Of a DNA stretch of 64,000 nt, positions 48,437 through 63,931 are shown in pieces. The notes under the pieces were generated by a model that saw only the letters and a list, made by a program, of their open reading frames with translations, made no database searches and had not been told where the DNA came from. The first letter of the stretch is position 1. Every line of letters begins with the position of its first letter. Origin of the DNA: Nitrospirota bacterium (GTDB lineage: Bacteria > Nitrospirota > Nitrospiria > 2-01-FULL-66-17); assembly GCA_049325335.1 (NCBI GenBank), contig JBMOMC010000037.1, positions 1 to 64,000 on the forward strand. The letters run 5' to 3'. Position numbers and translations under genes: made by a program.

Positions 48437-48979
48437 CTACAGCCACCCCAACGCTTCCAGCTTCTTGATCACCTTCAGCGCGCACTGCTCTACACTCTCT
48501 TGGCTCGTGCGCAGCGTGACTTCGGGGTTGAGCGGCGCTTCGTAGGGATCGTCGATGCCCGTGAACTGTTTGAGCTCACCGGCCCGCGCCTTGCGGTACA
48601 GCCCCTTCACGTCGCGCGACTCGCACACATCGAGCGGGCACTCGGCGTAGACCTCCACGAACCGCCCCACCATCTTGCGCACCTCGTCGCGCACCCCGCG
48701 GTACGGCGAGATCGCGGCCGCGATGTTGGGCACCCCATGTTTGGTCAACACGTGGCAGACCCAGCCGATGCGACGGATATTGGTGTCGCGATCCTCGCGG
48801 CTGAACCCAAGGCCCTTGCTCAGGTGCGTGCGCACCACGTCGCCGTCCAGAATTTCCACCTCTCGCCCCATCCGCTGCCGTAACAATTCCGCCAGACGAT
48901 GCGCCACCGTGGTCTTGCCCGCGCCGGACAGGCCGGTGAACCAAATGGTAAAGCCCTTCTCCCCCACTCTGGTGGACAC
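48437..48979 (-). CDS. cysC: Adenylyl-sulfate kinase
   Basis: [33 protein letters not shown]. Confidence 0.96.
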
Positions 48980-49002
48980 CGTTATTTGCTCCTTTCGTGT
49001 GA

Positions 49003-49959
49003 TCAGAATGAGTCGCTGACGTCTCGAACTCGCGCCGATTGGCGCGGCCTCATCACAGCCGGATGGATGTGTCCCCACGGGCTCATTGGCCGGACGTGCC
49101 ACCACAACGCACGGAAGAGAGACCCGATGACGTCCATGTCCGCTCGGATCATGCCGCGACACAACCTGGCCAATACAACGATCGTAAACACCGGCACGAA
49201 CGCAACCCAGTGGTACGCCGAAGCGTGCTTACGCATAAAGTAGATCCAGTTTCGCGTTCGGTAGTACGCCGTGATGGGATTGAGCCCCTTCCCTGAGCTG
49301 GCCTCACCCTTGTGGTACACGATTGCGGAGGGCGCGCACACGACCCGATAGCCGACACGCCTGCCCCGAAAACACCAATCCACCTCGTCGTAGTACGCAA
49401 AAAACACCTCATCCAATAAGCCGACCTTCTCGATAAACTCACGCGACACCAGTAACGAGCACCCGACCACGTAATCCACGTCGCGCGGCTTCATGTCAGT
49501 CTCACGGTCCGGCTGTCCGGTTGCGATGCGCCGCCGATTAAACCACAAACTCTGCGACTCGCCGCACGAGTACACGAGGTGACGGTCAGGTTCACACAGC
49601 ACCTTCGGCCCCACGACCCCGATGGTTCGATCCCCACCCGCAACGCGGGTGAGTTCGGTGAGCACATCGGGATCAACAATCGTATCGTTGTTGAGGATCA
49701 AGACGTAGTCGGCGCCCCGGCGCAAGGCCCAGTGAATGCCCGCGTTGTTCCCACCCGCGTAGCCGAGATTGCTCCCCGTTTCGATCACATCCAGTCCGGG
49801 AAAGCGCCCCGCGAGCACCTCCGGCGAGCCGTCGGTGGAGCCGTTGTCGACGACGACCGCCGTGAACCGGGGGTAGCGAAGACGCTGGACCGACTCCACG
49901 CACCGAATCGTGTCGTCGCAACGATTCCAATTCAAAACAATGACGATGACAAGCGGCAC
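49003..49959 (-). CDS. GT2 glycosyltransferase
   Basis: [31 protein letters not shown]. Confidence 0.93.
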
Positions 49960-49973
49960 GTGCTCCTCGGCCC

Positions 49974-51032
49974 TCACGACGCGGAGGCTTTCGGACACGG
50001 CGGTGGCGATGCCGCCCAAAAGAGCAGCGCGCGGACGAGGTCCCTCCCCGCCCCTTTCATGCCTGAAGAATACCGGTGATAGCGCAGCGTCAGCAGCTCC
50101 CGAACCACCATGGGGAAACGGGACAACGGTCGGCTGGACATCAGCGCCCTCGCCCGGAGGTGCCGCACCTTCGCACGAAACAGGGCCAGAACGGGATGCG
50201 TCGGCGACTCCAAGACCGCCGCCAAACGGTCGCATGCCATCTGGTATCGATCGGCGTAGGCAACGAAGTCGTGATCCCATTTTCCGACGTACGCGCGGGG
50301 ATCCGCCCAGGCATCGGAGACGGCCGCCCGCACCATCTCGAAGACACTCGTCTCGCGTTCGCGCTTCATCTTCATCGCACCGATCTGCTGCCCGCCGTGC
50401 TGCCGGTAATCAATCAGTGGATCGGGAATGATGGCCAAGTCGGCGACGGCGGAGATCAGCAAGGCCATCCACGCATCGTGCATCCAATCCGCGGGAATGG
50501 GGAGAATCAACTTGCGGAAGTCCGAGCGAAACACCGCCGTGGCACCGGTCACCACGTTTTCCTTGAGGAGCACCTCCAAGCCGCGCCCATCCCGTACCAA
50601 CCGCCGCTGAGCGGCATCAAACCCCACAGCCTCCCACAGGCGATAGCCCAGGGGGCAAAGCGAGTCATCCACCACCTCGCCATCGGTGAACACCGCCCCG
50701 ACATCGGGCGACATCGAGAACGCCGCAACAATCCGCTCCAGCTTCTCAAGCCGCCACACGTCGTCCTGATCCGACAACGCGATCAGATCGCCTTCACACC
50801 GTTGGATTGCCTGCTCGAAATTCTTGGTGGAACCGAGAGCCGTCGGATTGAGGAAGAGACGGACCGGAAACGGCGCGTGAGACGCGAAGGCCCGAACGAT
50901 GGCGACCGTGTCGTCGGTCGAGCCGTCGTCGCAGACCACCAGCTCGTGGGGCGTGAGCGTTTGCGCCGCGAGGCTCTCGAGCTGCTCCGCGAGGTACCGG
51001 CGACCGTTGTACGTGGCCAACGCGACGGACAC
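49974..51032 (-). CDS. GT2 glycosyltransferase (rhamnosyltransferase-like)
   Basis: ATYNG, DDGSTD, SDQDDVW, HD.W, YRQH. Confidence 0.93.
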   Translation of the reverse strand: MSVALATYNGRRYLAEQLESLAAQTLTPHELVVCDDGSTDDTVAIVRAFASHAPFPVRLFLNPTALGSTKNFEQAIQRCEGDLIALSDQDDVWRLEKLERIVAAFSMSPDVGAVFTDGEVVDDSLCPLGYRLWEAVGFDAAQRRLVRDGRGLEVLLKENVVTGATAVFRSDFRKLILPIPADWMHDAWMALLISAVADLAIIPDPLIDYRQHGGQQIGAMKMKRERETSVFEMVRAAVSDAWADPRAYVGKWDHDFVAYADRYQMACDRLAAVLESPTHPVLALFRAKVRHLRARALMSSRPLSRFPMVVRELLTLRYHRYSSGMKGAGRDLVRALLFWAASPPPCPKASAS

Positions 51033-51072
51033 GCGCCCGCCCTGAGGAGCCCGCTCGGCTCCGGCCGCCCTC

Positions 51073-53880
51073 TTAGATTCTGAAGCTAAAATCCGTCTTC
51101 TCGAGCGTCAGGTTGGGACTGTAATACGGATCGCCGGCGTCGAAGACGCGCTTCCAGCGCGTCTTCATCAACGCGATCTCCCGGTCCAGCCGCGCTCGCT
51201 CCTCCGGTTTGTCGTCATGCCCCCGGCTCACGGACTCGTGGTGATAGAGCTCGGCGTACGGGGTATAGACGACCAGGTAGCCCTTGTCCCGAATCCTCAG
51301 GCAGAGATCCACGTCGTTGAACGAATGCGAGAACGCCTCGTCGAAGCCGCCCACCTCGTCGAAGACCGTCCGCCGCATCATCATGCACGCCGCGGTGACC
51401 GCGGTCAGGTTCTGAATGATGTTGATCCGTCCCATGTACCCCCGGGCCGACCGGGGATAGTGCTTGTGCGCGTGGTCCGCAACACCCCAGTAGCCAACGA
51501 TCGTCCCGGCGTGCTGAATGGTATCGTTCGGGTAGTACAGCTTAGCTCCCACGGCCCCCACGTCGTCCCGCTGCGCGAATTCCAACATGGCGTCGAGCCA
51601 CTCGGGGTTGATCACCTCGGTGTCATTGTTCAGAAACACCAGATAGTCCGAGTCCGTGCCGCGAACCGCGAAGTTGTTGACGGCGGAAAAATTGAAGGGC
51701 TGGTCATACCGCGCCACCCGGACCTTGGCGTGATCCGTGACGCGGTCGAAATACGCCAACGTCTCCGGCTCCCGACTTCCGTTGTCGACGATCAGGATCG
51801 TGAAGACCTCATGACGCGTCTTGGCGAGCACGGACGACACGCAGCGCTCCAGCAGATGGAGCTTGTCTCTGGTGGGCACGATGATGGTGACATGCTGGCC
51901 CGGCCGCACGCGATACTTGACGCGGTAACTTCCCAGCGCGTCGCCGTCCAGGACCTCCGCGTCCAGGCCGCGGCGAGTCAGGTGCTCCGCGATGGCCCGT
52001 TTCGCGGCGGAGACGGCATACGGCTTCACCTTCACCCCGGCCGCGGTCGATGCCGTGGCCGCCCGCCAGTGATACAGCACCTTGGGAATCCGCCGGATCG
52101 CCTGCGTCTTCTCAACCGCGCGCAGCAGCAGGTCGTAGTCCTGCGCCCCGTCATATCCCTCGCGAAACCCGCCCAACTCGTCCAGGATCCGCTTCCTCAC
52201 CACCGCGAAATGACACAGGTAGTTATAGGACAGGAACGTGTCCGGCGCCCACCCTGACTTGAACTCCGGATCATATCGCCTGGTGCCCGAGGCCGGCACC
52301 TTATCTTCGTCGGAGTAGATGATGTCCGTGGGCGAGCCCTGATTGAGCAGCTTGACGACTTCGTGCAACGCAAACGGCGCGAGCATATCATCGTGGTCCA
52401 GAAACCCCACGTACTCTCCGGACGCTAGCCGCAACGCTTCGTTCGCGTTGCCGGCGATCCCGCGGTTCTTGTCCAGCCGCAGGAATTTGACTCTGGGTTC
52501 CCTGCCCGTGAACGCCTCGATGATTTCCCTCACGTACGGCTGATCGGATCCCCCGTCGACGATGCACAGCTCCCAGCGGTCGTAGAGCTGATCGGCCACG
52601 GATTCGAGACAGCGGGTCAGGGCATACCGCGTGGGATTGAACACCGGCGTCACCAGGCTGACCAGCGGCCGGTACGACCAGGCCGTGGACTCCGCCCGCA
52701 TCGTCGGGAATTCAGCGCGCGTCGGCTCATGCTTCGTGATCCAAAATCGATATGGCCAGTACTCCATGTACACGAAATTGACCAACCCATGCTCGATGAT
52801 TTTTCTGGCCTTCGCGTCCACCCAACTGTAAACAGCTCGTCTCCCCGAATGAAGAGGGAGCAGCGTATCCCGTACCCGGTGGTACTTCCTCACGAGAACA
52901 CGGGTCAGTTTGTAATGGATCCGATTCAATTCCGAGTCTCGATTCGCCAGCGCGGACTCCAACGCGGCCACTCGCTGCGCAAGCGCCTTCTCTGACGTGA
53001 GTCGTGCGTCAATCTCGTGCCGAAAATAGGCCGAAAACTCGGTAAATGTCCGGCGAACCTGTTCGACCGGGTTCTGAAATCCTGGATCGGAAACCCGTAC
53101 GGCGTTTCGCGCGATGTCGTCCAACATCCGGTGCAGGTGAACGACATCATCCGGCGCCTGTTCCGCCAACAGCTCCTCGCGTGGGGACGCGTTATGCCGA
53201 AGGTCCGGCCTGAGAAACCCCTGCATGTCCTTCCGAAGTTGGGAATCGTCCTGCAGCCACAAAACGCCGAGCCCAGCCGCGCACCGCCTCAACTCAGGCT
53301 CCCAGTCGCTCATCAACCGGTCGAATGACACAAACACCGTCGGAACACCTCGAACCGCATCCAACGCGGCCAGATTCGCCGTCAACCAAAGGCCCCACGA
53401 CTTCTCGAACGGGAATCCGTCGCGCCGCTTCAACGACTTCGCGACATCAAGCGGATTGCGGACGACATAGACACAAGATAACGAGATGCCCAACTCCGCC
53501 AACACATCCTTCCAAAGCGGAAGGATGAGCGTGGTCCGGGGATCCTTCCATGCCCATAACGGCCGTGGGCCGAACTGGGTGCGAACCAACCTCACTAATT
53601 CATCTCGGAAGTCCTTGACCTCCGGTGATCGCTCCCATCCCGCTGGAAGCAAGCCGACCGTGTGCCATCTCCGTCCAAATCTCGCGAGAATTCTGTCGTG
53701 CAAGTCGACGACATCGCGTCGCTCAAACACCCCTTCTTGATTGTCAGGAACCGGCGGTAGAAGCTCCCTCTCTTCTCCAAGATAGGCCCCGAGAAGATTG
53801 ACCGCCCGCGAGACCACCGACGTGCCGCTCCGGTGCATGCCGAGAATACACACGGCTCGCGGCGACCTCTTAGAGTCCAT
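51073..53880 (-). CDS. Fusion of a sulfotransferase-like domain, a coiled coil and two GT2 domains
   Basis: ILGMHRSGTS, WKDPR, RNP.DV..SL; heptad stretch; first GT2 (LDHDD, YSDED); second GT2 (FLNND, FNDVD.C.R). Confidence 0.9.
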   Translation of the reverse strand: MDSKRSPRAVCILGMHRSGTSVVSRAVNLLGAYLGEERELLPPVPDNQEGVFERRDVVDLHDRILARFGRRWHTVGLLPAGWERSPEVKDFRDELVRLVRTQFGPRPLWAWKDPRTTLILPLWKDVLAELGISLSCVYVVRNPLDVAKSLKRRDGFPFEKSWGLWLTANLAALDAVRGVPTVFVSFDRLMSDWEPELRRCAAGLGVLWLQDDSQLRKDMQGFLRPDLRHNASPREELLAEQAPDDVVHLHRMLDDIARNAVRVSDPGFQNPVEQVRRTFTEFSAYFRHEIDARLTSEKALAQRVAALESALANRDSELNRIHYKLTRVLVRKYHRVRDTLLPLHSGRRAVYSWVDAKARKIIEHGLVNFVYMEYWPYRFWITKHEPTRAEFPTMRAESTAWSYRPLVSLVTPVFNPTRYALTRCLESVADQLYDRWELCIVDGGSDQPYVREIIEAFTGREPRVKFLRLDKNRGIAGNANEALRLASGEYVGFLDHDDMLAPFALHEVVKLLNQGSPTDIIYSDEDKVPASGTRRYDPEFKSGWAPDTFLSYNYLCHFAVVRKRILDELGGFREGYDGAQDYDLLLRAVEKTQAIRRIPKVLYHWRAATASTAAGVKVKPYAVSAAKRAIAEHLTRRGLDAEVLDGDALGSYRVKYRVRPGQHVTIIVPTRDKLHLLERCVSSVLAKTRHEVFTILIVDNGSREPETLAYFDRVTDHAKVRVARYDQPFNFSAVNNFAVRGTDSDYLVFLNNDTEVINPEWLDAMLEFAQRDDVGAVGAKLYYPNDTIQHAGTIVGYWGVADHAHKHYPRSARGYMGRINIIQNLTAVTAACMMMRRTVFDEVGGFDEAFSHSFNDVDLCLRIRDKGYLVVYTPYAELYHHESVSRGHDDKPEERARLDREIALMKTRWKRVFDAGDPYYSPNLTLEKTDFSFRI

Positions 53881-53961
53881 CAACTCCTCATGACCCCGCC
53901 CGCCGCCACTCATATCGCGATCCTCGCCATTTACGTCGGTTCCGCAACCTGCTGCCAGCGC

Positions 53962-55191
53962 TTATCCGCTACGACGACTCTTCACATCCGAGTCTGAAAG
54001 AGCATTGACCGTCCAATGATGCGACAGCAAACACAATCCTTCCGCTTTGTATGCCGTTGATCGGACTGTGAACGAGGCGGCATCATGTCGCACTGCGATA
54101 CGACCCACTGCACTGCTCTCGAAGAACGCCACCCTGAGTCTATACGTGCCTGGGAGCACGATCGAGTCCGGATAGTGAAGCACCAATTCATAGACTCCCG
54201 GCATGAAAGGGAGCGGCATGCCGTCTCGTTTGGTGTTGAGACCGCAAACGTTGATCCGTTCGCGGTTGAGAATCGCGACAGCTCCCACGATGCCCGGATA
54301 TTCCTTGGTAAGCCGATATGACACGCACACTGTGAACGATTCCCCGAACCCGAGTTCCGAAACAACCTCCCCTCCCTTATTTCTAACAACGACCTGTTCA
54401 ATCGAAACGACGGATTCCCCGTCATGCATAACGGTCTTGTCCTCGCGGCCCGCGGCAGCCGACTCCGCCATGACATCCGCGTAGGAGTCGGTGACGGAAA
54501 CCACATCACCTTCCGCCCGGACCATCCCGTGATCGAGCCAGAGTGCCCGCGTGCAGAAATTCCGAATAACGTGAATCTGGTGGCTCACCAATACGATAGT
54601 CCGGCCTGATCGTTGAAATGACTTGAGTCGTTCAACGCATTTCAACTGGAATGCGATGTCGCCCACCGCCAGGGCCTCGTCGATGACGAGAATATCTGGG
54701 TCCACACTGATCGCGGTCGAGAAGGCCAACCGGACGAACATGCCGCTGGAGTAGTGCTTGACCGGTTGATCGATAAACTCCCCGATGTCGGCGAACGCTT
54801 CAATGTCGGCAATTCGCCGGTTCATCTCGGCCCTCTTGAGCCCCATGAGCGCGCCGGTCATGTAGACGTTGTCTCGCCCGCTGAATTCCGGATGAAAACC
54901 CGCGCCCAGTTCCAGAAGCGACGCCACCCTGCCGTTCACCTGGACGTTTCCGCTCGTTGGACGGATCACACCGCACAGAATCTTCAGCAGAGTACTTTTC
55001 CCACTGCCATTATGTCCGACAATACCAAGGGTCTCGCCTTGCTCAACCGCAACTGACACCCCGTTCAGGGCAGCAAACTCCTTCCGCGCCCCTGCGCTCT
55101 TCAGGCCCAGAAGTTGAAACAGGCGATCTTTCGGTGAGCGATACAGTCGATAGACCTTCCTGAGATCCTGAACGTCGAGCGCCGTCGGCAT
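53962..55191 (-). CDS. wzt: Polysaccharide ABC exporter ATPase Wzt with a C-terminal domain
   Basis: GHNGSGKST, YSSGM, DEALAVGD, plus a ~150-aa beta-rich C-terminal extension. Confidence 0.93.
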   Translation of the reverse strand: MPTALDVQDLRKVYRLYRSPKDRLFQLLGLKSAGARKEFAALNGVSVAVEQGETLGIVGHNGSGKSTLLKILCGVIRPTSGNVQVNGRVASLLELGAGFHPEFSGRDNVYMTGALMGLKRAEMNRRIADIEAFADIGEFIDQPVKHYSSGMFVRLAFSTAISVDPDILVIDEALAVGDIAFQLKCVERLKSFQRSGRTIVLVSHQIHVIRNFCTRALWLDHGMVRAEGDVVSVTDSYADVMAESAAAGREDKTVMHDGESVVSIEQVVVRNKGGEVVSELGFGESFTVCVSYRLTKEYPGIVGAVAILNRERINVCGLNTKRDGMPLPFMPGVYELVLHYPDSIVLPGTYRLRVAFFESSAVGRIAVRHDAASFTVRSTAYKAEGLCLLSHHWTVNALSDSDVKSRRSG

Positions 55192-55196
55192 GAGCG

Positions 55197-56009
55197 TTAT
55201 AGGACGTCCGTAAACTGCGGTTTCAGCTTTCTAAATACCCCGCCCCCAAGAGCAAACACCCCCATCCCCAACGCCGCGAGATAGGCGATTCCATTGACGT
55301 CAAACGATCCGGTGCCCAACAGCGCGGCGCGGTACCCGTCCACGACGTAGATCATCGGGTTCAACGCGTACAAAGCCTTGAGCGATTGCGGCACGAGTGT
55401 GTGGTCGTAGACGATCGGGGTGAGGAAGAACCAAATATTCACGAACACGCCGACAACCTGGCCGATGTCCCGCAGGAACACGTTCAATGCCGACAACAGC
55501 CATGAGATGCCTAATGAAAATACCATGAGGACTGCCAAGTACGGCGCAATCAGCACAATGTGCCCCGAGACCTCGTGCCCAGAAATCGCCAAGAGAGCCA
55601 CCAGCAACATGAGCCCGATTAAATGGGTGATGACCGACGCCAAGACCCTCACAATCGAAAGCAGCTCCGACGGGAAGACCATCTTCTTGATTACGGCAGC
55701 CTGCTCGAGCACCGCATCCGACGACCGACCCAACACCTCCGCGAACATCATCCAGGGCAACAATCCTGCGATCAGCCACACCGCGTAATTCGTCCCCGCG
55801 TACTCCCCGCCCAACCGCATCTTGAGCACGACGGAAAAAACGAAATAATAGATGAGCAGTTGGATCAGAGGATGAATCACGGACCAGAACACGCCGAGAA
55901 GCGATCCGACGTACCGTTTGCGCAGATCGAGTACCACCAAACTCCGAATCATGTAACTGTTCTGCTTCAACAGCCTAAGCAAGGCTCCGATCCGTCGAAA
56001 GGGGTTCAT
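55197..56009 (-). CDS. wzm: Polysaccharide ABC exporter permease Wzm
   Basis: RYVGS.LG..W, KK..FP, RD, TPI.Y, NP. Confidence 0.93.
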   Translation of the reverse strand: MNPFRRIGALLRLLKQNSYMIRSLVVLDLRKRYVGSLLGVFWSVIHPLIQLLIYYFVFSVVLKMRLGGEYAGTNYAVWLIAGLLPWMMFAEVLGRSSDAVLEQAAVIKKMVFPSELLSIVRVLASVITHLIGLMLLVALLAISGHEVSGHIVLIAPYLAVLMVFSLGISWLLSALNVFLRDIGQVVGVFVNIWFFLTPIVYDHTLVPQSLKALYALNPMIYVVDGYRAALLGTGSFDVNGIAYLAALGMGVFALGGGVFRKLKPQFTDVL

Positions 56010-56049: not shown

Positions 56050-56634
56050 TCACACTCCAACCTTCATAATCCTCGACGCGTCCACGCCGACAGCGCTCAA
56101 CACCCTGACCGATTCCTCCGCGTTCGAATCGACCACAATCACATGGTCGAATGTAAGCGACGACACAGTTTCCGGCCCCAGAATAGGCCGCCCACACAGG
56201 GCCTGCCCTGCCTTACCGTCACACACGATCGCCGCGACATCTAAATGAGCTTCTTGAAGAGACAGCAGCGCGATCTCCGCAAGATCGCCTTTACCGTAGA
56301 GGACCACGGACCTTGCACCTGCCGCTTTCATTCCATCAAACGTCTTGGTCATACTCTTCCTTGCTTCCCGATAAAAGAAATATGACTCTTGGATGTACTG
56401 GAAGGCTAGGCTCGTCTTCTGCGCAATACCCGATGGGGTCAACTCGTAGCGGAGACGATGCGGTTTGAGATTGACGACTTTGATAAGGCCTTTCTTCGTT
56501 AGGCGCCGAACATAGAGGTTAGTTAAACCCAGCGCCACACCAAGCCGTTGGCTCAATGTCCGCTGAGTCAGGTCCCCGCCCTTGGACACCTCGTCGAGGA
56601 TCCGAAACACGTGTACGTTGTCGCCCTGTTTCAT
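56050..56634 (-). CDS. MarR-like winged-helix regulator (EPS-locus type) with a C-terminal Rossmann-like domain
   Basis: TQR.LS..LG.ALG..N, Y.LTP.G...K; YG.G.LAE. Confidence 0.85.
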   Translation of the reverse strand: MKQGDNVHVFRILDEVSKGGDLTQRTLSQRLGVALGLTNLYVRRLTKKGLIKVVNLKPHRLRYELTPSGIAQKTSLAFQYIQESYFFYREARKSMTKTFDGMKAAGARSVVLYGKGDLAEIALLSLQEAHLDVAAIVCDGKAGQALCGRPILGPETVSSLTFDHVIVVDSNAEESVRVLSAVGVDASRIMKVGV

Positions 56635-56881: not shown

Positions 56882-57757
56882 CTAAGATTTCTGAAAAATT
56901 ATCACATCCTGGAAGAAGACTCCAGGCACTTCCTTCCAGTTCCCGGGGAAGCGTTGTACCAACCCTATCCCCGCCTCAGAAATAAGGCGGTTCAGTCCGT
57001 TCTCTGTTACACCCACAGCACTTTCCGGAACTGTCGCCCACGCGGGATGAAACCAGTCATTCGAGCCATAAGCCGGTTGATCAAACACCCATTTGCCTTG
57101 CGAAGTCATATGATACCGTCCCGTTGCTTTGGACCTTGCATCTAGGCCCTTCTCGTAAATCTCATCCAACAGGAAGAACGTGATTATCGCTTTGCCTCCA
57201 GGCTTAAGCACACGACCCACTTCCTTGAAATAGAATAAAGCGTCTTCTTCATTGAGGTGCGTCCAGGTCGATAACGCCGTGACCAGATCGAAGCTAGCAG
57301 GCTTTACTGGCCAACCTACCCTCTCGCTTTTCTGGGACGGTGTATAAGCCGGGTTACTGATGTCCAGATGTATGAACTCAAAAGCCGCAGAGGGGAAATG
57401 ATTCCGGCAAAACTCAATCTCCCTTTTCACGACGTCAATTCCCACGTAGCGCCCATGAGTCCCGAGAAAAGGTTCACTCGCTATCCCCAACAATCCGGTT
57501 CCACACCCTACGTCTAGAATCGAATTATCCACTTTACGGTCCACGTGCAAATACATTAGGGTCTGGAAAATTCCGACGACGTGCGCCCATTCAGCATATG
57601 AGTACTTACCACCCCGTCTATTGTCTTCCGTTGGAATCAACCGAATATTCTTTGTCCTACGGACATGATTTCTATCTAAAGGAACATAAAAGCGGTCAAG
57701 AAGTTTGTACAGGTCAATTCCTAACGCCTTGAGGCCACGCTCGACGACATGTCTCAA
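56882..57757 (-). CDS. Class I SAM-dependent methyltransferase
   Basis: ILDVGCGTG, FDLV.A.S..THL, RVLKPGG. Confidence 0.92.
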   Translation of the reverse strand: MRHVVERGLKALGIDLYKLLDRFYVPLDRNHVRRTKNIRLIPTEDNRRGGKYSYAEWAHVVGIFQTLMYLHVDRKVDNSILDVGCGTGLLGIASEPFLGTHGRYVGIDVVKREIEFCRNHFPSAAFEFIHLDISNPAYTPSQKSERVGWPVKPASFDLVTALSTWTHLNEEDALFYFKEVGRVLKPGGKAIITFFLLDEIYEKGLDARSKATGRYHMTSQGKWVFDQPAYGSNDWFHPAWATVPESAVGVTENGLNRLISEAGIGLVQRFPGNWKEVPGVFFQDVIIFQKS

Positions 57758-57772
57758 TTCATTCCCCTCGTT

Positions 57773-58534
57773 TTATTTGTCCGCTATTGAGCGAGTTCTA
57801 ACCCATTCATACAGCTCACGATCCAAGTGATTGTATTCTTCGACGACTCCTAGAGTTTCTTTTTCCAGCCACGCTCTCGGCTGTGTGGTTACGTTGAGAT
57901 TCGGGATCTGGTGCCGACGCCATCCACTCCGGTTTCCGATGACTCTCACCACATCACTCATTTCTTCGACAGTCCCGATGACACCAAAGTACTTCTCAAC
58001 ATTCTCCTTCGCCCTCTGTATAGCCTCCCTACTATCCACGATTTCGCCCGGTCTAGTCTTGATTCCCGCAAGAATTCTCGTCATCTGATTATTGGTCATT
58101 TCCGTATAGCGTCCGGCAACGAATTGCGTCAACGATAGCCCTTCCTTCACCAAAGCGAACAATGGCGACCGTGGCGTTCGCCCAACATGATGGTACAAGG
58201 AGACCACTCGCTCGACCGGGTCGCGAAGAATCGTAGCGTAGATGGGTGGTGTATCCAGGGTTTGGTGAAGACCGAACGAGAAATGTCCGTAGACTATCCG
58301 GATCGCTGGTCGGTTCCGATGGAAGGCCTCTGCTAATTGCGCCCGCTGTGCGTCGACGTCGCCATCCGGGCCCGGGTACCAGAACAGACGCTGATTGTCA
58401 CGATACTCGGCCTCGACGACAGATCGGAACGATGTTCCGGCGCACTTCGGAATATGGCAAAACAGCAGGGGATCGCCCTTCCACACGCCATTTCTCCTGG
58501 CAAACCTTTTAATTTCTGACCACCAACGATTCAT
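57773..58534 (-). CDS. Sulfotransferase (family 2-like)
   Basis: HIPKCAGTS, GHF, LRDPVERVVS.Y, N..D..LY. Confidence 0.9.
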   Translation of the reverse strand: MNRWWSEIKRFARRNGVWKGDPLLFCHIPKCAGTSFRSVVEAEYRDNQRLFWYPGPDGDVDAQRAQLAEAFHRNRPAIRIVYGHFSFGLHQTLDTPPIYATILRDPVERVVSLYHHVGRTPRSPLFALVKEGLSLTQFVAGRYTEMTNNQMTRILAGIKTRPGEIVDSREAIQRAKENVEKYFGVIGTVEEMSDVVRVIGNRSGWRRHQIPNLNVTTQPRAWLEKETLGVVEEYNHLDRELYEWVRTRSIADK

Positions 58535-58540
58535 GTCTCT

Positions 58541-59302
58541 TTAAGACGCGGCTCCAGACTGTCCGACAGACATGTGGAGACCACTGGACTTCACCCAGTC
58601 GTACAGTCCGATGTCGAGCGCATTATGTTCGACAATCGCCTGACGCGTTTCGTGATCGATTTGAGTCGGGCTGTCCGGTTTGACGTTCAACACGGGAATC
58701 GAATGGTGACGCCACGCTAGCCGGCGAGCGAGGGCGGCCAAGACCTCGTCCATCGACTCGACGGTTCCGATGACACAGAAATATTTCCGGACGTTCTCCT
58801 TGGCCAGATCCAACCACTTTTCGTCATAGGCCACCCCTCCAGGTAGCGCCGGCACGCCGGCAAGGGTTCTCGTCATGTGGTTGCTCGCCATTCCCGCGAA
58901 GGCTTTTAACGAAAGCCCTCCCTTGATTCGGTCAAAAAACGGAGACTGAAGATCGCGCCCAAAATGATGGTACAGCGAGATCACGCGAGCCACCGGCTCA
59001 CGCACGATCGTTGCGTAGACAGGAGGGATGTCCAGGAAGCGATGCATGCCGAACGCAAAGTGCCCATAGATGATTTGAATGTCCCTGCGAATCCGTTGAA
59101 ACCGCTCAATGAACTCTGCGCTGGGCGTCGGGAGATTCAGTTCCTCCTGCTTGTACACAAACAGTCGCTGCTTCGGTTTGTATTCGGCCTCGATGACCGC
59201 ACGGAAGGACGTGCCAGCGCATTTCGGAATATGGCAAAAAAGCAATGGGTCCACGCGCCGCAAACCGCTGAGACGAACGATTCTTCTGAGAGCGGAGGTC
59301 AA
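58541..59302 (-). CDS. Sulfotransferase (family 2-like), paralog
   Basis: HIPKCAGTS, GHF, REPV.RVIS.Y, N.LD..LY. Confidence 0.9.
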   Translation of the reverse strand: MTSALRRIVRLSGLRRVDPLLFCHIPKCAGTSFRAVIEAEYKPKQRLFVYKQEELNLPTPSAEFIERFQRIRRDIQIIYGHFAFGMHRFLDIPPVYATIVREPVARVISLYHHFGRDLQSPFFDRIKGGLSLKAFAGMASNHMTRTLAGVPALPGGVAYDEKWLDLAKENVRKYFCVIGTVESMDEVLAALARRLAWRHHSIPVLNVKPDSPTQIDHETRQAIVEHNALDIGLYDWVKSSGLHMSVGQSGAAS

Positions 59303-59405
59303 TGCCGCCTAGCGTTTTCGGGAAACACGGGAACTGGCGCCGACGAGACGGCAGTCAGGACGTGGACGGACGACCTCACGCGCCTGGCCGGATGCCCGAC
59401 CGAAA

Positions 59406-60443
59406 TCACTGCAGGATCTTCTTGAGGCGCTTTTTCGCGCCGTTCAACATGCGCCCCAAGCGTGTCGCATAGCCCTGTTCCCAGCGTTCAGACGTCTGGG
59501 GCATGGATTCTAGATCGATCTGTAGCAGTTGGGTCGTCAAGTTGGTGGTGACATTGGGAAACAGAATCGGCAAGGTCGCTATTGTTTCGGGGCGATATTT
59601 GATCGACTTGAATCGCGAGTGGGTGACGACGAACATCAACGTGTCGATTCCCATGGATTGTGCGAGGTGCTGGGCTGCCGTGATTTCCTCGTCGCTATCG
59701 TTGAATTCGAAGAGGATATATTTCCACATGATGTTCTGTTTCTTCCCAGCCACCGTCTTGGGGATGTCCTTCATGAACCGAATCACTTCGTCCACGTTGC
59801 CGCCAATCCGATACTGTGCATAACTCTTCTGGAACACGCCGTCGCACGACACCACGATCTCGTCGATGAACTCCCCGGCAGTGGCCTTCCCATAGTCAAA
59901 GTTCCCGTTCGTGATCACCCGCTGTCGTGTTTCGGGGTACGAATCTCTGGCCGTTCTCACGAACTCCGCAAACCGCGGGTGCATTAACGGATCGCCCTGA
60001 CCGCAGTACTCGATCTCACCGACCGTATACGAGTTCTTTCGAAGACTCTTAAGCAAACCGTCGAACGCTTCGATTTCCATCAAGAACGGCTTAGCTCTCG
60101 TTTGTCGCTGTGTCTTATTGGAACAACACGGGCACTCAAGGTTACAGGCGAGCGACGGCTCCAGTTGTATCTTGCGGATCTTCCTCTGACTCAGGTTGTC
60201 GGAGAACGGCTCGTTCGTTCGGAGCCAGGCGCAGCTATTGCAGACCTCGCCCCACGGCACCACCCCGGCCGAAAGCGTCGCCCGCATGTGGGTGTACTGA
60301 TCGTTGGTCAGGACCTTCTGGATATCCCACGAAGGGTCAAGGTGGGCGACCGTTCCAAGGAGGACCTGCTCTCCCTTGTCGCAATCGCACGGAATGTCGC
60401 CGTTGCTCCTGACGTAGATCGTTTCGAGAATCTCACAATTCAC
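59406..60443 (-). CDS. Radical SAM protein with an N-terminal SPASM/twitch-like domain
   Basis: CNLECPCC, GQGDP, TNG, SCDG; N-terminal C..IYV..NGDIPCDC..LG..CNSC. Confidence 0.88.
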   Translation of the reverse strand: MNCEILETIYVRSNGDIPCDCDKGEQVLLGTVAHLDPSWDIQKVLTNDQYTHMRATLSAGVVPWGEVCNSCAWLRTNEPFSDNLSQRKIRKIQLEPSLACNLECPCCSNKTQRQTRAKPFLMEIEAFDGLLKSLRKNSYTVGEIEYCGQGDPLMHPRFAEFVRTARDSYPETRQRVITNGNFDYGKATAGEFIDEIVVSCDGVFQKSYAQYRIGGNVDEVIRFMKDIPKTVAGKKQNIMWKYILFEFNDSDEEITAAQHLAQSMGIDTLMFVVTHSRFKSIKYRPETIATLPILFPNVTTNLTTQLLQIDLESMPQTSERWEQGYATRLGRMLNGAKKRLKKILQ

Positions 60444-60860: not shown

Positions 60861-63800
60861 TTACGGCACATCGAACACCTCCACCAGCGCAATTCCGGTG
60901 GTGCCCCCGACGCCGCTAACCACGACCGAATACGGCCCCGGCGGTAACGTCACCAGCAACGCCGCTTCGTTACCGCAGTTCGGCGGTTGTGCCGTTTGTC
61001 CAGGGTTCGGCATACAGGGGTCCTTTCCGGTCGCTGAAATCTGCGCCGAGTTCCCACAAGAGGCGGCAGGGCTTCCGCATAGAAGATCCGTGGTCTGCCA
61101 ATTGTCGTTCTGGGCGATGGTCGTGCCTGCCGACACCAGCCGCATCGTCGGATTTACTAGTGTCCCCGGCACGTTGAAGGGCGCGCCGCTCATAGACGGC
61201 CCCCGCGCCCGGATCAACACCTGCTTGCTGCCGGTCCCCGAAGGACCGATGATGAAGCCGCCGTTTAACAACCCAGCCGGTGCCGTGACTACCGTACCGC
61301 GAGTGGAGATATTGACGAGCTTTAACTGAGATCCAGTGTCCGCCTCAAATGCCTCCACCAACGCAATCCCAGTGGTACCGCTAACACCGCTCACCACTAC
61401 TGAATACGGTCCTGGCGGCAACGTCACCAGAAGCGCAGCTTCATTCGCGCAACCTGGGGGAGGGGTAGTCTGCCCAGGGTTCGGCACACACGGGTCCCGT
61501 CCCGTGGCAGTGATCTGTGCCGCGTTGCCGCATGTGGTCGCTGGACTCAGACACAGCGGGTCAGTAATCTGCCAATTGTCATTCTGCGCAATTGTTGTTC
61601 CCGCTGACACCAGGCGCATCGTAGGATTGGTTAACGTACCCGGCACATTAAATGGCGCACCACCCATGGAGGGTCCGCGCGCCCGGATCAAAACCTGTTT
61701 AGTGCCGCCGTTTGCAGCGCCGATAATGAACCCTCCGTTCAGAGATCCCCCGGCCGCAGAGACCACCGCCCCCCTCGTGGAAATATTCAGGAGCTTGGCG
61801 CCCGTGGCGGGACTAGCGGTCACGTCGATAGGCGACGTACTACATAATGTGTTGTTACCTTCCGCGTTCGCTTCAGAAATTACCCCGCCACTGTCAGCCA
61901 TACCACAGACGTAGTAGGTACCGGCCGGAGTTGTATACGACACTGTGACCAGGGTCGTGGCGCTGTTGCTCGAAGCCGCGACCAAAGAGCTGATCGAGCG
62001 CAGCGGAGACAGGGCTATGTCATCGGTTCCTCCGTAAAGCGCATCCACCGACAGATGCAACGCGATCGTAAACGTCCCTGCATTCGAGCCCCCTTGATTC
62101 TGGACCGTGTTGGACACGGATAGGGGGCCGCCTTGCGGCACAGCCGTTGACAGCGGAGTGACCGCGCTCATTACTAAATCTGGTGGAGAAATCACAACAG
62201 TAACCGTGGTGGTGTGTACTTCACCAGCCGCCGTACCGCGGATCACCACCGGATAACTACCGATCGCAATGCTCGGCTGCGCGGATATCGTCAGCGTCGA
62301 TGTCGCGGTACCGCTAGCCGGTACCGTTACCGTCGTAGGGATGAAACTGCCAGCCAGATTCGCGTCCATGGCACCGAGCGTCAACGCTACCGATCCGGAA
62401 AACGCACCTTGAGACGTTACCGTTACAGCATACGTGGTAGACCCGCCCGCGGTGACGGCCTGACTTACTGGAGCTGCCGTTACCGTGAAATTGGAAAGCA
62501 GTGCCCGCTGGACGTTCAAACGGCCGCCAGTCGTAGTTCGACCAGTTAAAGCGGGAATCGGATCGACGGTTGACAGAATAGCGTCCCTTACCTGTGTAAG
62601 CGTGTAAGACGGAAACTGCGACAGAATAAGTGCCGCCGCACCGGACACGTGGGGTGCGGCGCTCGACGTCCCGTTGACGGAGAGGTATCGCGAGGGGTCG
62701 CAAAGTCCGCAGGATCCCGTGGGCACGGTGGAGAGGATTGCTGAGCCCGGAGCACCAAGGTCGACAGTGCTGGAACCGTAGTTGGAGAAACTCGCAAGCT
62801 GATCGTTTCGGGTCGTCGCAGACACGCAGATCACATTAGGCTGTGTGGACACGCACGGGTAGTCGGGGGTGACGTCGTTATTCGTCCCGTTGTTCCCCGC
62901 CGCCACGACAACAAGCACCCCGGCGGAATTTGCGTATGCAATCGCGTCTTCAAGGGCTTGCGAGTAACAGCCGACGCCATTACAACCCCAACTGGCATTG
63001 ATAATCCGCACACCCATATTCGCCGCATACAGAATTGCATCGACCGCATCGCTGGTCAGCCCGTTTCCGCCGGCATCCAGAAACTTAAGCGGCATGACCC
63101 TAGCCTGCCAAGCCACACCCGTGACGCCGACCCCATTGTTCCCAACCGCAGCTATGATCCCAGCGGTATGGCTCCCATGACCGCCGTCATCGGAAGGATT
63201 GCTGTCGTTATTGACGAAGTCCCAGCCACGATAGTCGTCGATATACCCGTTGCCGTCGTCGTCGATCCCGTTGCCGATAATCTCGCCCGGATTGACCCAA
63301 AGGTTGGCCGCAAGATCGGGATGCGTGAGATCCATGCCGCTGTCGATATCCGCAACCACGACACTCGGACTCCCGACCTGACTGTCCCACGCCTCGGGCG
63401 CGTCAATGTCCGCGTCGACCGTCCCGCCCGCCTGCCCAATGTTGTGCAGGCCCCACAAACTTGAGAACAGTGGGTCGTTGGGAATAATCCGGGCTTGATA
63501 GATAATGTTGGGTTCCGCGTATTCGACATCGGGATTCTGCCGGTATCGTTGCAAGAGCGTTTCCATCGACTCTCCTCGCCGTGCTCTCACCCGATCGATT
63601 CCGATCTCATGAATCTCGGCGATCACGTCCACGTCTTCCCTAACGTGGGTCAGCCGCTTATTAGCCAGTGGTACGGGTTTCTTAAATTTGACCAACACCT
63701 CACCCGGCATCTGAGCCGGACCGCCTATTCGTGCAACGGGACCTCGACTGGAATCGGATTCCGCATCCGCTATCGCCGATGATGCAGGAAGCCAGAGAAA

Positions 63801-63881
63801 CGACAGAAGGAACGCGCTGACAAACAACGCCATTCCGGAGTGACTCCCCCCAAAGCGCCGCCAAGCGATCAATCTATCCAT
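60861..63881 (-). CDS. Secreted S8 subtilase with propeptide, Ig/CARDB-like domains and a duplicated C-terminal domain; start uncertain
   Basis: Catalytic triad DIDSG / GHGSHTAG / GTSSAAPHVSG; AEPN propeptide; PDL...CARDB-like segment. Confidence 0.93.
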   Translation of the reverse strand: MDRLIAWRRFGGSHSGMALFVSAFLLSFLWLPASSAIADAESDSSRGPVARIGGPAQMPGEVLVKFKKPVPLANKRLTHVREDVDVIAEIHEIGIDRVRARRGESMETLLQRYRQNPDVEYAEPNIIYQARIIPNDPLFSSLWGLHNIGQAGGTVDADIDAPEAWDSQVGSPSVVVADIDSGMDLTHPDLAANLWVNPGEIIGNGIDDDGNGYIDDYRGWDFVNNDSNPSDDGGHGSHTAGIIAAVGNNGVGVTGVAWQARVMPLKFLDAGGNGLTSDAVDAILYAANMGVRIINASWGCNGVGCYSQALEDAIAYANSAGVLVVVAAGNNGTNNDVTPDYPCVSTQPNVICVSATTRNDQLASFSNYGSSTVDLGAPGSAILSTVPTGSCGLCDPSRYLSVNGTSSAAPHVSGAAALILSQFPSYTLTQVRDAILSTVDPIPALTGRTTTGGRLNVQRALLSNFTVTAAPVSQAVTAGGSTTYAVTVTSQGAFSGSVALTLGAMDANLAGSFIPTTVTVPASGTATSTLTISAQPSIAIGSYPVVIRGTAAGEVHTTTVTVVISPPDLVMSAVTPLSTAVPQGGPLSVSNTVQNQGGSNAGTFTIALHLSVDALYGGTDDIALSPLRSISSLVAASSNSATTLVTVSYTTPAGTYYVCGMADSGGVISEANAEGNNTLCSTSPIDVTASPATGAKLLNISTRGAVVSAAGGSLNGGFIIGAANGGTKQVLIRARGPSMGGAPFNVPGTLTNPTMRLVSAGTTIAQNDNWQITDPLCLSPATTCGNAAQITATGRDPCVPNPGQTTPPPGCANEAALLVTLPPGPYSVVVSGVSGTTGIALVEAFEADTGSQLKLVNISTRGTVVTAPAGLLNGGFIIGPSGTGSKQVLIRARGPSMSGAPFNVPGTLVNPTMRLVSAGTTIAQNDNWQTTDLLCGSPAASCGNSAQISATGKDPCMPNPGQTAQPPNCGNEAALLVTLPPGPYSVVVSGVGGTTGIALVEVFDVP
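60864..61796 (-). repeat. Intragenic tandem duplication of a ~158-aa NISTRG domain
   Basis: KLLNISTRG starts at 61796 and KLVNISTRG at 61322 (period 474 nt); long identical peptide stretches. Confidence 0.95.
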
Positions 63882-63931
63882 ATCCCTCCTGAGCCATATA
63901 GGCCTCACCACGGTGTAGGAGACCTAGAATA

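Follow-up and report, generated by a model that had tools for sequence, protein, structure and literature searches.

The window, that is, the whole stretch of 64,000 nucleotides analysed here, carries wzm, wzt, a fusion gene, two GT2 glycosyltransferase genes and cysC, all six on the minus strand between 48437 and 56009. This co-oriented run was found as a preliminary description of the DNA had given it. That description left out the upstream part of the locus, which continues with a MarR_EPS regulator, a methyltransferase, two Sulfotransfer_2 genes and a radical SAM gene. The features are as follows.

56882..59302, minus strand: accessory cassette of a SAM methyltransferase and two Sulfotransfer_2 genes
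56050..56634, minus strand: MarR_EPS-type regulator, below the TIGR04176 cut-off; heads the locus in G000–G004
55197..56009, minus strand: wzm, ABC-2 permease of the glycan exporter (ABC2_membrane PF01061, E 1.4e-17)
53962..55191, minus strand: wzt, ATPase with a C-terminal carbohydrate-binding module, CBM (PF00005, ABC_tran, and PF14524 above cut-off)
54031..54420, minus strand: Wzt_C module with the cap pocket (PF14524 and alignment to Aquifex Wzt; pocket residues as described in PMC9445017)
51073..53913, minus strand: 946-aa fusion of sulfotransferase, short coiled coil, amphipathic helix, GT2 and GT2
53164..53874, minus strand: sulfotransferase domain, fusion residues 14–250, PF13469-like
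53818..53841, minus strand: GMHRSGTS loop, from fusion residue 25
53434..53460, minus strand: RNPLDVAKS (R-x7-S motif), fusion residue 152
52915..52995, minus strand: short coiled coil, about 4 heptads
52876..52929, minus strand: basic amphipathic helix, probable membrane anchor
52174..52659, minus strand: fusion GT2 domain 1, DHDD motif (PF00535)
51238..51891, minus strand: fusion GT2 domain 2, NNDT motif (PF13641)
49974..51032, minus strand: stand-alone GT2, adaptor or repeat-unit enzyme (PF00535, E 3.7e-24); also in G001 and G004
49003..~49977, minus strand: stand-alone GT2, rhamnosyltransferase-like, below the TIGR01556 cut-off; also in G001, G002 and G004
48437..~48979, minus strand: cysC, APS kinase making PAPS (APS_kinase, E 4.6e-61; NF002059 above cut-off)

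An alternative start of the fusion is possible at the ATG at 53880. The accessory cassette has a lower GC3, and a scan for promoters and terminators stayed at or below chance (3 vs 5.0; 5 vs 12.1). Against the PDB, the GT2 pair of the fusion gave only generic GT2 matches, such as chondroitin synthase, so that its sugar donors cannot be assigned.

First, the N-terminal domain of the fusion was compared with sulfotransferases and P-loop kinases. The GMHRSGTS and WKDPR motifs named in the preliminary description are present at residues 25 and 122; the R-x7-S motif at residue 152 had been overlooked there. We take GMHRSGTS to be the 5′-phosphosulfate-binding loop and R-x7-S to be the 3′-phosphate-binding motif, which would mark PAPS use. 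Among 107 aligned sequences, G24, R27, S28, G29 and T30 of the loop are invariant, and so are the R and S of R-x7-S; the two motifs are matched in 225 and 240 of 241 homologues, respectively. The full-length fusion has no Pfam match to a sulfotransferase, nor to any methyltransferase or kinase family, and the isolated domain reaches PF13469 with E 0.0024 (18.6 bits, below the gathering cut-off of 27). Its counterpart in G001, 76% identical within a fusion orthologue that is 80% identical, lies above that cut-off (31.9 bits), and PF13469 is matched by 30 of 44 homologues. A single-sequence PDB search with the domain returned nothing, and a profile built from its family retrieved human SULT 1cjm (E 1.6e-6). 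The best ESM Atlas matches are sulfotransferase clusters (0.98). The hhalign probability of the domain was 48–78% with three small alignments of sulfotransferases, 1.0% with CysC, covering the loop alone, and 0.4% with the WbdD kinase domain. With both PAPS-binding motifs in place, it reads as a PAPS-dependent sulfotransferase and not as a kinase. As judged from its sequence, it is not of the WbdD type, having no SAM methyltransferase or kinase match, and is not a GT99 Kdo transferase. The family to which it belongs is very large and uncharacterised (about 15,000 clusters at 50% identity).

The heptad stretch expected behind this domain was found at residues ~307–333, the top-scoring but short stretch of the protein. 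The score comes from a home-made heptad heuristic and not from COILS; 1 of 80 background proteins triggered it, as did stretches within 4 of 241 sulfotransferase domains. A coil follows the sulfotransferase domain in 187 of the 225 homologues with a tail of at least 100 aa, and that of the fusion is among the shortest (family median 65 aa; 40 of the 187 are ≤35). The basic amphipathic helix, also named earlier, occupies residues 329–346; its hydrophobic moment, 0.64, is at the protein's 99th percentile, and its net charge is +6. It is a degenerate form of the S-x-S-W-R helix found after the coil in homologues and in a WbdD homologue of G003, and is probably a membrane anchor that holds the GT2 domains at the membrane. 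By the heptad heuristic, the modifying domain sits at the coil's distal end, and the two GT2 domains come after the helix. If the coil acts as a ruler, its shortness would plausibly mean short chains.

Second, related loci exchange this domain for other modules. In G003, of the same genus, the gene after wzt encodes the WbdD homologue (E 4e-109 to PDB 4ax8), which has the same coil and amphipathic helix junction as the fusion. None of three sulfotransferase families sought was found in this genome (99% complete), and its cysC is a remnant of 47 codons in two frames. The homologue P0121 is 82% identical to the fusion from residue 328 on versus 22% over residues 1–300, and carries Methyltransf_24 in place of the sulfotransferase domain. 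The short coil is the point where homologues exchange their N-terminal modules, and GT2, GT4, and a deacetylase plus GT2 also swap on the GT2-GT2 scaffold. In the scaffold tree (all trees were built with FastTree), 32 of 89 rows have no N-terminal module; the 13 sulfotransferase rows require 12 changes vs 12.4 when shuffled, and thus the module has been exchanged repeatedly. The swaps with the WbdD homologue and the methyltransferase support a capping role, and agree with the terminator position assigned to the domain at the outset.

A wzt gene lies within 10 kb in 33 of 80 related loci, 23 of them with Wzt_C; the other 47 have no wzt within reach, some contigs being short. In 17 related loci the gene stands directly after wzt, and all 17 Wzt proteins have a long C-terminal module. 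Cultured strains with this arrangement are Rhodanobacter geophilus, Dyella psychrodurans, D. jejuensis, Azorhizophilus paspali and Paenibacillus sedimenti. The CBM is absent from 5 of the 33 related Wzt proteins, 4 of which have a sulfotransferase in its place, and several related loci have a stand-alone sulfotransferase domain with no coil. G001 keeps the fusion, wzt and cysC and lacks the upstream methyltransferase and Sulfotransfer_2 pair; the Sulfotransfer_2 family was not found in G001–G004. In Aeromonas salmonicida, by contrast, a sulfotransferase gene, of whichever family, follows wzt, and no sulfate is reported to have been seen in the O-antigen (PMC4483657).

Third, Wzt has a genuine CBM, since PF14524 matches above its cut-off (E 1.8e-12, 47.9 bits vs 30.4). 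The preliminary description had named a kinase, missing PAPS motifs or a Wzt with no CBM as grounds against a sulfate cap, and none of the three was found. In the PDB, Wzt matches Aquifex Wzt 8dku best (E 6.7e-68), with an alignment that runs across both the ATPase and the CBM; a single-sequence PDB search with the isolated CBM gave nothing. Aquifex Wzt is described as reading a 3-O-methyl cap via Leu300, Thr346, Ala348 and Trp362 (PMC9445017). At these positions the window's Wzt has Ala, Arg, Ala and Val, so that Arg352 replaces Thr346 and Val366 the methyl lid Trp362. The cap pocket contains a basic residue in 30 of 35 sulfotransferase-linked vs 3 of 18 methyltransferase-linked CBMs, and the Trp lid is seen in 0 of 35 vs 10 of 18. 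A Fisher p of 3e-7 was set aside because the rows are kin, and the pocket correlation has no more than 4 (starred) to 7 independent pairs behind it, for which the sign test gives a median p of 0.5. Of 8 control loci that have a sulfotransferase in the locus, only 4 show a basic pocket, and the WbdD-linked CBM of G003 has an Arg pocket as well. In the CBM tree, 18 CBMs linked to sulfotransferases, drawn from three phyla, group together in a single clade with support 100. It holds 1 of 60 control CBMs, L153, which is one of 2 controls carrying the N-terminal sulfotransferase family. The ATPase domains of its members mostly cluster too (3 changes), and with so few independent pairs co-inheritance of whole wzt genes can account for the correlation. 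The CBMs of the window and G001 are placed among control CBMs, outside this clade, and do not have the Arg that it shows at the Trp362 position; the clade was therefore rejected as proof of sulfate reading at the window's locus.

As for the sulfate donor, both sat and cysC are present in the genome, with Sat encoded outside the locus. The CysC had been called dedicated, but it is the only one in the genome (a single copy in the assembly), and two other sulfotransferase genes lie 4–5 kb upstream, which it could also serve. The idea that cysC is present only alongside the N-terminal domain was rejected, because G002, which does not have that domain, still has its cysC intact in the corresponding place, and a PF01583 match of some kind, many of them weak, occurs in 46 of 61 genomes. 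Only 10 of 80 related loci have cysC within 10 kb.

What the sequence itself shows is the set of genes, the order of the domains, the motifs of a sulfotransferase, a CBM on Wzt and exchange with terminator modules already known. The best reading is a polymerase-terminator of the WsaE/WbbB type, probably with sulfate as its cap. The locus would build a lipid-linked surface glycan on the inner membrane face for export via Wzm/Wzt. Most likely this is an LPS O-antigen, the alternative being a protein-linked glycan; the genome has LpxC and two Wzy_C genes at other places, and none in the locus. The fusion would act as a single-chain polymerase-terminator, in which the helix keeps the two GT2 domains at the membrane and these lengthen the chain, probably aided by the two free GT2 enzymes. 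Sat and the locus CysC would supply PAPS. The sulfotransferase domain, held off on its short coil, would move sulfate from PAPS to the non-reducing end, where it would block further extension, and the Wzt module would let through only sulfate-capped chains. The terminal sulfate on the glycan is what we infer from the features above, and likewise the acceptor position, the halting of growth by sulfation, sulfation-dependent export, chain length, sugars and carrier.

It is rather unlikely that the domain instead sulfates internal repeat units, its fusion to the polymerase serving efficiency, and that any cap recognised by the CBM is made by a different enzyme, for instance the methyltransferase upstream, one of the Sulfotransfer_2 pair or a free GT2. 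There are known bacterial polysaccharide clusters that contain cysC and sulfotransferases, one of which has sulfate modelled on a repeat-unit rhamnose (PMC11641403), and a methyltransferase and two more sulfotransferases do lie upstream here. Moreover, some of the swapping modules (GT2, GT4, deacetylase plus GT2) are not proven terminators, and the window's CBM stands outside the sulfotransferase-linked clade. However, the upstream genes cannot supply a conserved cap, since G001 keeps fusion, wzt and cysC without them. The CBM pocket with Arg and no Trp lid also speaks against such decoration, as does the coil separating two activities, a hallmark of terminators as stated in PMC11231755. Slightly less likely again, the domain would sulfate the chain end and vary surface chemistry only, neither setting length nor gating export. 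The terminal pyruvate of K. pneumoniae O1 is described as such a precedent (PMC11231755), and a coil of just ~4 heptads, related Wzt proteins without a CBM and scaffolds without an N-terminal module would fit. Against this, the window's CBM scores above cut-off, the characterised CBM-bearing exporters are described as needing the cap (PMC9445017), and Wzt has its C-terminal module in all 17 related loci where the gene directly follows wzt. That the domain is a P-loop-type kinase or inactive, with a phosphate cap or none, is very improbable: the missing full-length Pfam and single-sequence PDB matches and an Arg pocket that would suit phosphate equally are outweighed by the near-universal R-x7-S motif, the hhalign values, profile and language-model searches favouring sulfotransferases, and the decay of cysC where WbdD replaces the domain.

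A sulfate-capping polymerase-terminator, if true, would bring a new termination chemistry and a first role for a large family of enzymes whose present name says no more than 'sulfotransferase family protein'. The 2019 terminator census of Mann, Kimber and Whitfield may already predict a sulfate cap. Known systems, in the accounts used here, are described with methyl, methyl-phosphate or Kdo caps, and in one case with a pyruvate that does not gate export. More tentatively, and with a little less than an even chance, sulfate could be a widespread, so far uncharacterised cap that ends chains and licenses their export in ABC-exported glycans of bacteria. It would be added by the very large sulfotransferase family, which swaps at the coil with methyltransferase and other modules on a shared GT2-GT2 polymerase, and read by Wzt modules in which an Arg entered the cap pocket on two or more independent occasions, once at the Trp362 position (main clade) and once at the Thr346 position (the window's lineage). 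A sulfate cap is directly testable, since nature offers swap pairs in which one polymerase bears either a methyl or a sulfate head, and the cultured strains named above have the gene directly after wzt. A swappable head could also serve to produce glycans of set length with a sulfated end.

Among known systems, WsaE of the S-layer glycan of Geobacillus stearothermophilus NRS 2004/3a is described as joining an N-terminal capping domain and two glycosyltransferase domains in one chain, from a gene directly after wzm and wzt, as the fusion does (PMC2943079). The likeness drawn here is one of architecture; WsaE caps with 2-O-methyl, and no oligosaccharyltransferase was identified in the window's locus. 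WbbB (K. pneumoniae O12/R. terrigena) and ORF6 (K. pneumoniae O7) are described as single chains that combine a terminator, a coil ruler and, at the C-terminal end, two GT modules, both GT2 in ORF6 as in the fusion, together with a CBM-bearing Wzt; their caps are β-Kdo (GT99) and methyl-phosphate, and their 'extended' coil is much longer (PMC11231755). In E. coli O9a, WbdD/WbdA with Wzm-Wzt use the same gene slot, in which G003 has a true WbdD homologue, but WbdD, a methyltransferase-kinase, is a protein apart from its polymerase and shows no sequence kinship to the catalytic domain of the fusion. Aquifex aeolicus WzmWzt (PDB 8dku), the best solved relative of the window's Wzt, reads a 3-O-methyl cap (PMC9445017). 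The sulfated capsule cluster of Vibrio sp. KMM 8419 has cysC, sulfotransferases, GTs and an ABC exporter within it, as here, but the exporter is of Kps type, and the account used here models sulfate on repeat units and describes no terminator (PMC11641403). In animals, HNK-1 sulfotransferase is described as ending the matriglycan made by LARGE1, so that a terminal sulfate can halt a two-domain polymerase (PMC10955480). Unlike the fusion, it is a Golgi enzyme separate from its polymerase, with no ruler and no ABC exporter. It presumably belongs to Sulfotransfer_2, another family than that of the fusion's domain.

The variable glycan locus of this genus sits between secreted-protein genes and cysC. 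In the window, the initial 64 kb of contig C37 from a genome of 99% completeness, all six genes of the preliminary description were found, co-oriented on the minus strand. The closest homologues bearing a name are labelled Nitrospirae, which makes Nitrospirota the likely phylum of the host. The fusion gene encodes 946 residues with two GT2 domains, and the Wzt_C domain encoded by wzt exceeds the Pfam cut-off. The locus and its surroundings are as follows:

48437-56009, minus strand: wzm, wzt, the fusion gene, two GT2 genes and cysC
upstream of these: MarR_EPS regulator, methyltransferase, two Sulfotransfer_2 genes, radical SAM gene
56882-60443: accessory slot on the upstream side of the regulator, with the methyltransferase and two Sulfotransfer_2 paralogues (49% identical to each other)
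60861-63911 and, in fetched locus L197, 1017-6398: genes immediately upstream of the locus for two large secreted proteins, one a subtilase with CARDB and the other a DUF11-repeat protein
L197:6563-8428 (contig C37, past the window end): 622-aa protein, hydrophobic at its N-terminus and with TPRs at the C-terminus, encoded divergently from the secreted-protein genes
L196:7118-10636 (contig C40, same genome): GT4, GT2 and GT4 genes, which in relatives G002 and G004 come after cysC

The accessory slot varies among relatives; in G001 it holds MBOAT/AlgX acetylation genes and a sulfotransferase-like gene, reversed and divergent. Both secreted proteins have a C-terminal domain in two copies with an NISTR motif at its start; in the subtilase, this domain matches nothing in Pfam. 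In G001-G003, too, the locus is preceded by related genes (in G002 by several arranged in tandem), and the secreted proteins are possible glycan carriers. The 622-aa protein may resemble TMTC-type transferases. The genome has a single cysC; another contig carries sat and a gene for a PAPS/APS reductase. Genes for LpxC and RmlC and two Wzy_C genes are also present, so LPS and dTDP-rhamnose are available, as a possible carrier and sugar source of the locus glycan.

The locus is real, and it probably encodes a sulfate-capping polymerase-terminator, as backed by module swaps in relatives. The likeliest mode of action, held at somewhat better than even confidence, builds on the observed gene content, domain order, donor motifs, Wzt carbohydrate-binding module (CBM) and swaps. 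The GT2 pair would extend a lipid-linked chain at the membrane, and the stalked head would sulfate the free chain end with PAPS as donor; this end cap would block further extension and be admitted by Wzt.

The natural swaps are the strongest evidence for capping. In G001, the fusion is 80% identical and wzt and cysC are kept, with the upstream methyltransferase and Sulfotransfer_2 pair missing. In G003, of the same genus, a WbdD homologue (E 4e-109) comes directly after a wzt bearing Wzt_C, cysC has shrunk to a remnant (35 plus 12 codons, in two frames), and none of the three sulfotransferase families looked for was found. G002 bears a GT2 head on a GT2-GT2 scaffold 62.5% identical, with intact cysC and other sulfotransferases elsewhere, so that the strictly dedicated CysC proposed at first is weakened. 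P0121, a fusion homologue with a Methyltransf_24 head, is 82% identical to the fusion from residue 328 on and 22% before residue 300, and the identity break lies inside the coil. A scaffold tree was built from 89 GT2-GT2 rows (86 of the 120 matches listed, plus the window, G001 and G004; left out are the window's own record, a number of partial or unlabelled rows and multi-GT forms with identity below about 50%), with head labels taken from precomputed lists of Pfam matches and from visual inspection. On this tree, the 13 rows with a sulfotransferase head require 12 changes, the same number as under label shuffling, and their neighbours are methyltransferase, GT2 and head-less rows. The sulfotransferase module trades places with known capping chemistries, some of the swapped heads not being proven terminators. 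Internal decoration, in which sulfate is added within the chain, is unlikely. Partial cysC copies also lie at the locus end in G001 (L114:16015-16308), G002 (L119:9502-9795) and G003 (L121:18391-18514), which suggests repeated recombination at cysC, the border of the variable locus.

As to the anatomy of the probable polymerase-terminator, the proposed coil was found as a heptad stretch at about 307-333 that continues as a basic amphipathic helix (329-346). By our own heptad heuristic, a coil is present in 187 of the 225 homologues having a tail (median 65 residues), and that of the window is within the shortest quarter. An S-x-S-W motif occurs in the tail of 88/225 homologues and also follows the coil in the G003 WbdD homologue. 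The linker has the anatomy of a terminator, in short form, and so short a putative spacer would allow early capping.

Of 593 loci, the genome scan for the sulfotransferase family of the N-terminal domain retained the best 80, and wzt lies within 10 kb in 33 of these 80. Those Wzt comprise 23 with Wzt_C, one with a long tail below threshold, four with a fused sulfotransferase and five short ones. Among the same best 80, the family gene comes directly after wzt in 17 loci and cysC is within 10 kb in 10. Dyella, Rhodanobacter, Azorhizophilus paspali and Paenibacillus sedimenti are cultured bacteria that carry the gene. Controls were the 60 best-scoring Wzt_C loci of a 201-genome phylum sample (G000, the window's own genome, G001, G002, G218 and G228 excluded), of which two carry the family and four carry cysC; 31 are unclassified because the control scan covered selected neighbours only. 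In three of the four cysC-bearing controls, the first or second gene after wzt encodes a sulfotransferase. In four Paenibacillus loci, a sulfotransferase domain (PF00685) replaces the CBM at the C-terminus of the Wzt ATPase (L022:15955-17808, L024:15970-17811, L034:15896-17764, L038:15942-17753); two of the four have a TPR match, all are preceded by a 612-aa Wzm-like protein with a 1020-aa family member nearby, and cysC follows in three. Other, PF00685-like sulfotransferase families with coiled coils come after wzt at L166:534-2591 and L161:5493-9100, with cysC directly before wzm, a pattern that may reflect more than one recruitment of sulfate heads.

A CBM tree combined 27 family-linked rows (22 of 24 from the best-80 loci, without L001 and L025, and five from G000 and relatives), 60 controls, G002 and G003. 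One clade unites 18 family-linked CBMs, which come from the Pseudomonadota, Bacillota and Nitrospirota, and its sole control, L153, has the family and cysC; the window CBM falls outside it. ATPase domains mostly group as CBMs do. With the cap pocket residues of Aquifex Wzt as reference (PMC9445017), a basic residue is found in 30/35 sulfotransferase-linked versus 3/18 methyltransferase-linked CBMs, and the Trp lid in 0/35 versus 10/18, a contrast resting on 4 to 7 independent pairs with a non-significant sign test. The window CBM has Arg at the Thr346 position, in common with G001, L040 and L068. This pocket evidence for sulfate is suggestive, not conclusive. End sulfation without gating by Wzt is rather improbable. 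At L144:6636-8318 and L146:6803-8389, two genes past a Wzt that has an Arg pocket, lie members of the sulfatase superfamily with a short coil, which are possible phospho-transferase terminators.

The head of the probable polymerase-terminator is judged a sulfotransferase, as first described, and not a kinase, from homologue PF13469 matches, profile searches and PAPS motifs. The isolated domain matches PF13469 weakly (E 0.0024); 30 of 44 homologues match, and the G001 domain, 76% identical, exceeds the Pfam cut-off. The N-terminal part of the family profile finds solved sulfotransferases (1cjm, E 1.6e-6), the part behind it coiled-coil proteins, and sulfotransferase clusters are top-ranked in the ESM Atlas (0.98). 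Profile-profile comparison gave 48-78% against three small sulfotransferase alignments; for CysC the value was about 1%, and for one single WbdD-type kinase domain 0.4%. In homologues with a complete domain, the 5'-phosphosulfate loop is kept in 225/241, the K-x-P motif in 235/241 and R-x7-S, the 3'-phosphate motif, in 240/241. The family is large, with 14,934 representatives found at an E-value of 1e-10 or lower. That the domain is a kinase or dead is hardly credible.

A 2019 census of terminator chemistries (Mann, Kimber, Whitfield; Glycobiology 29:822) reportedly made predictions of new chemistries; sulfotransferases may be included there or in the supplements. The string 'sulf' is absent from the main text of both PMC11231755 and PMC9445017, and no sulfate-terminated bacterial ABC-exported glycan was found in the titles, abstract openings and passages covered of open-access papers. 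In animals, termination of matriglycan by sulfate is established (PMC10955480). The fusion occupies the WbdD slot but is not of the WbdD enzyme family. Likewise, a mode of working similar to that of WsaE, WbbB and O7 ORF6, as presented in PMC2943079 and PMC11231755, is proposed for the fusion, although it is a member of none of their enzyme families.
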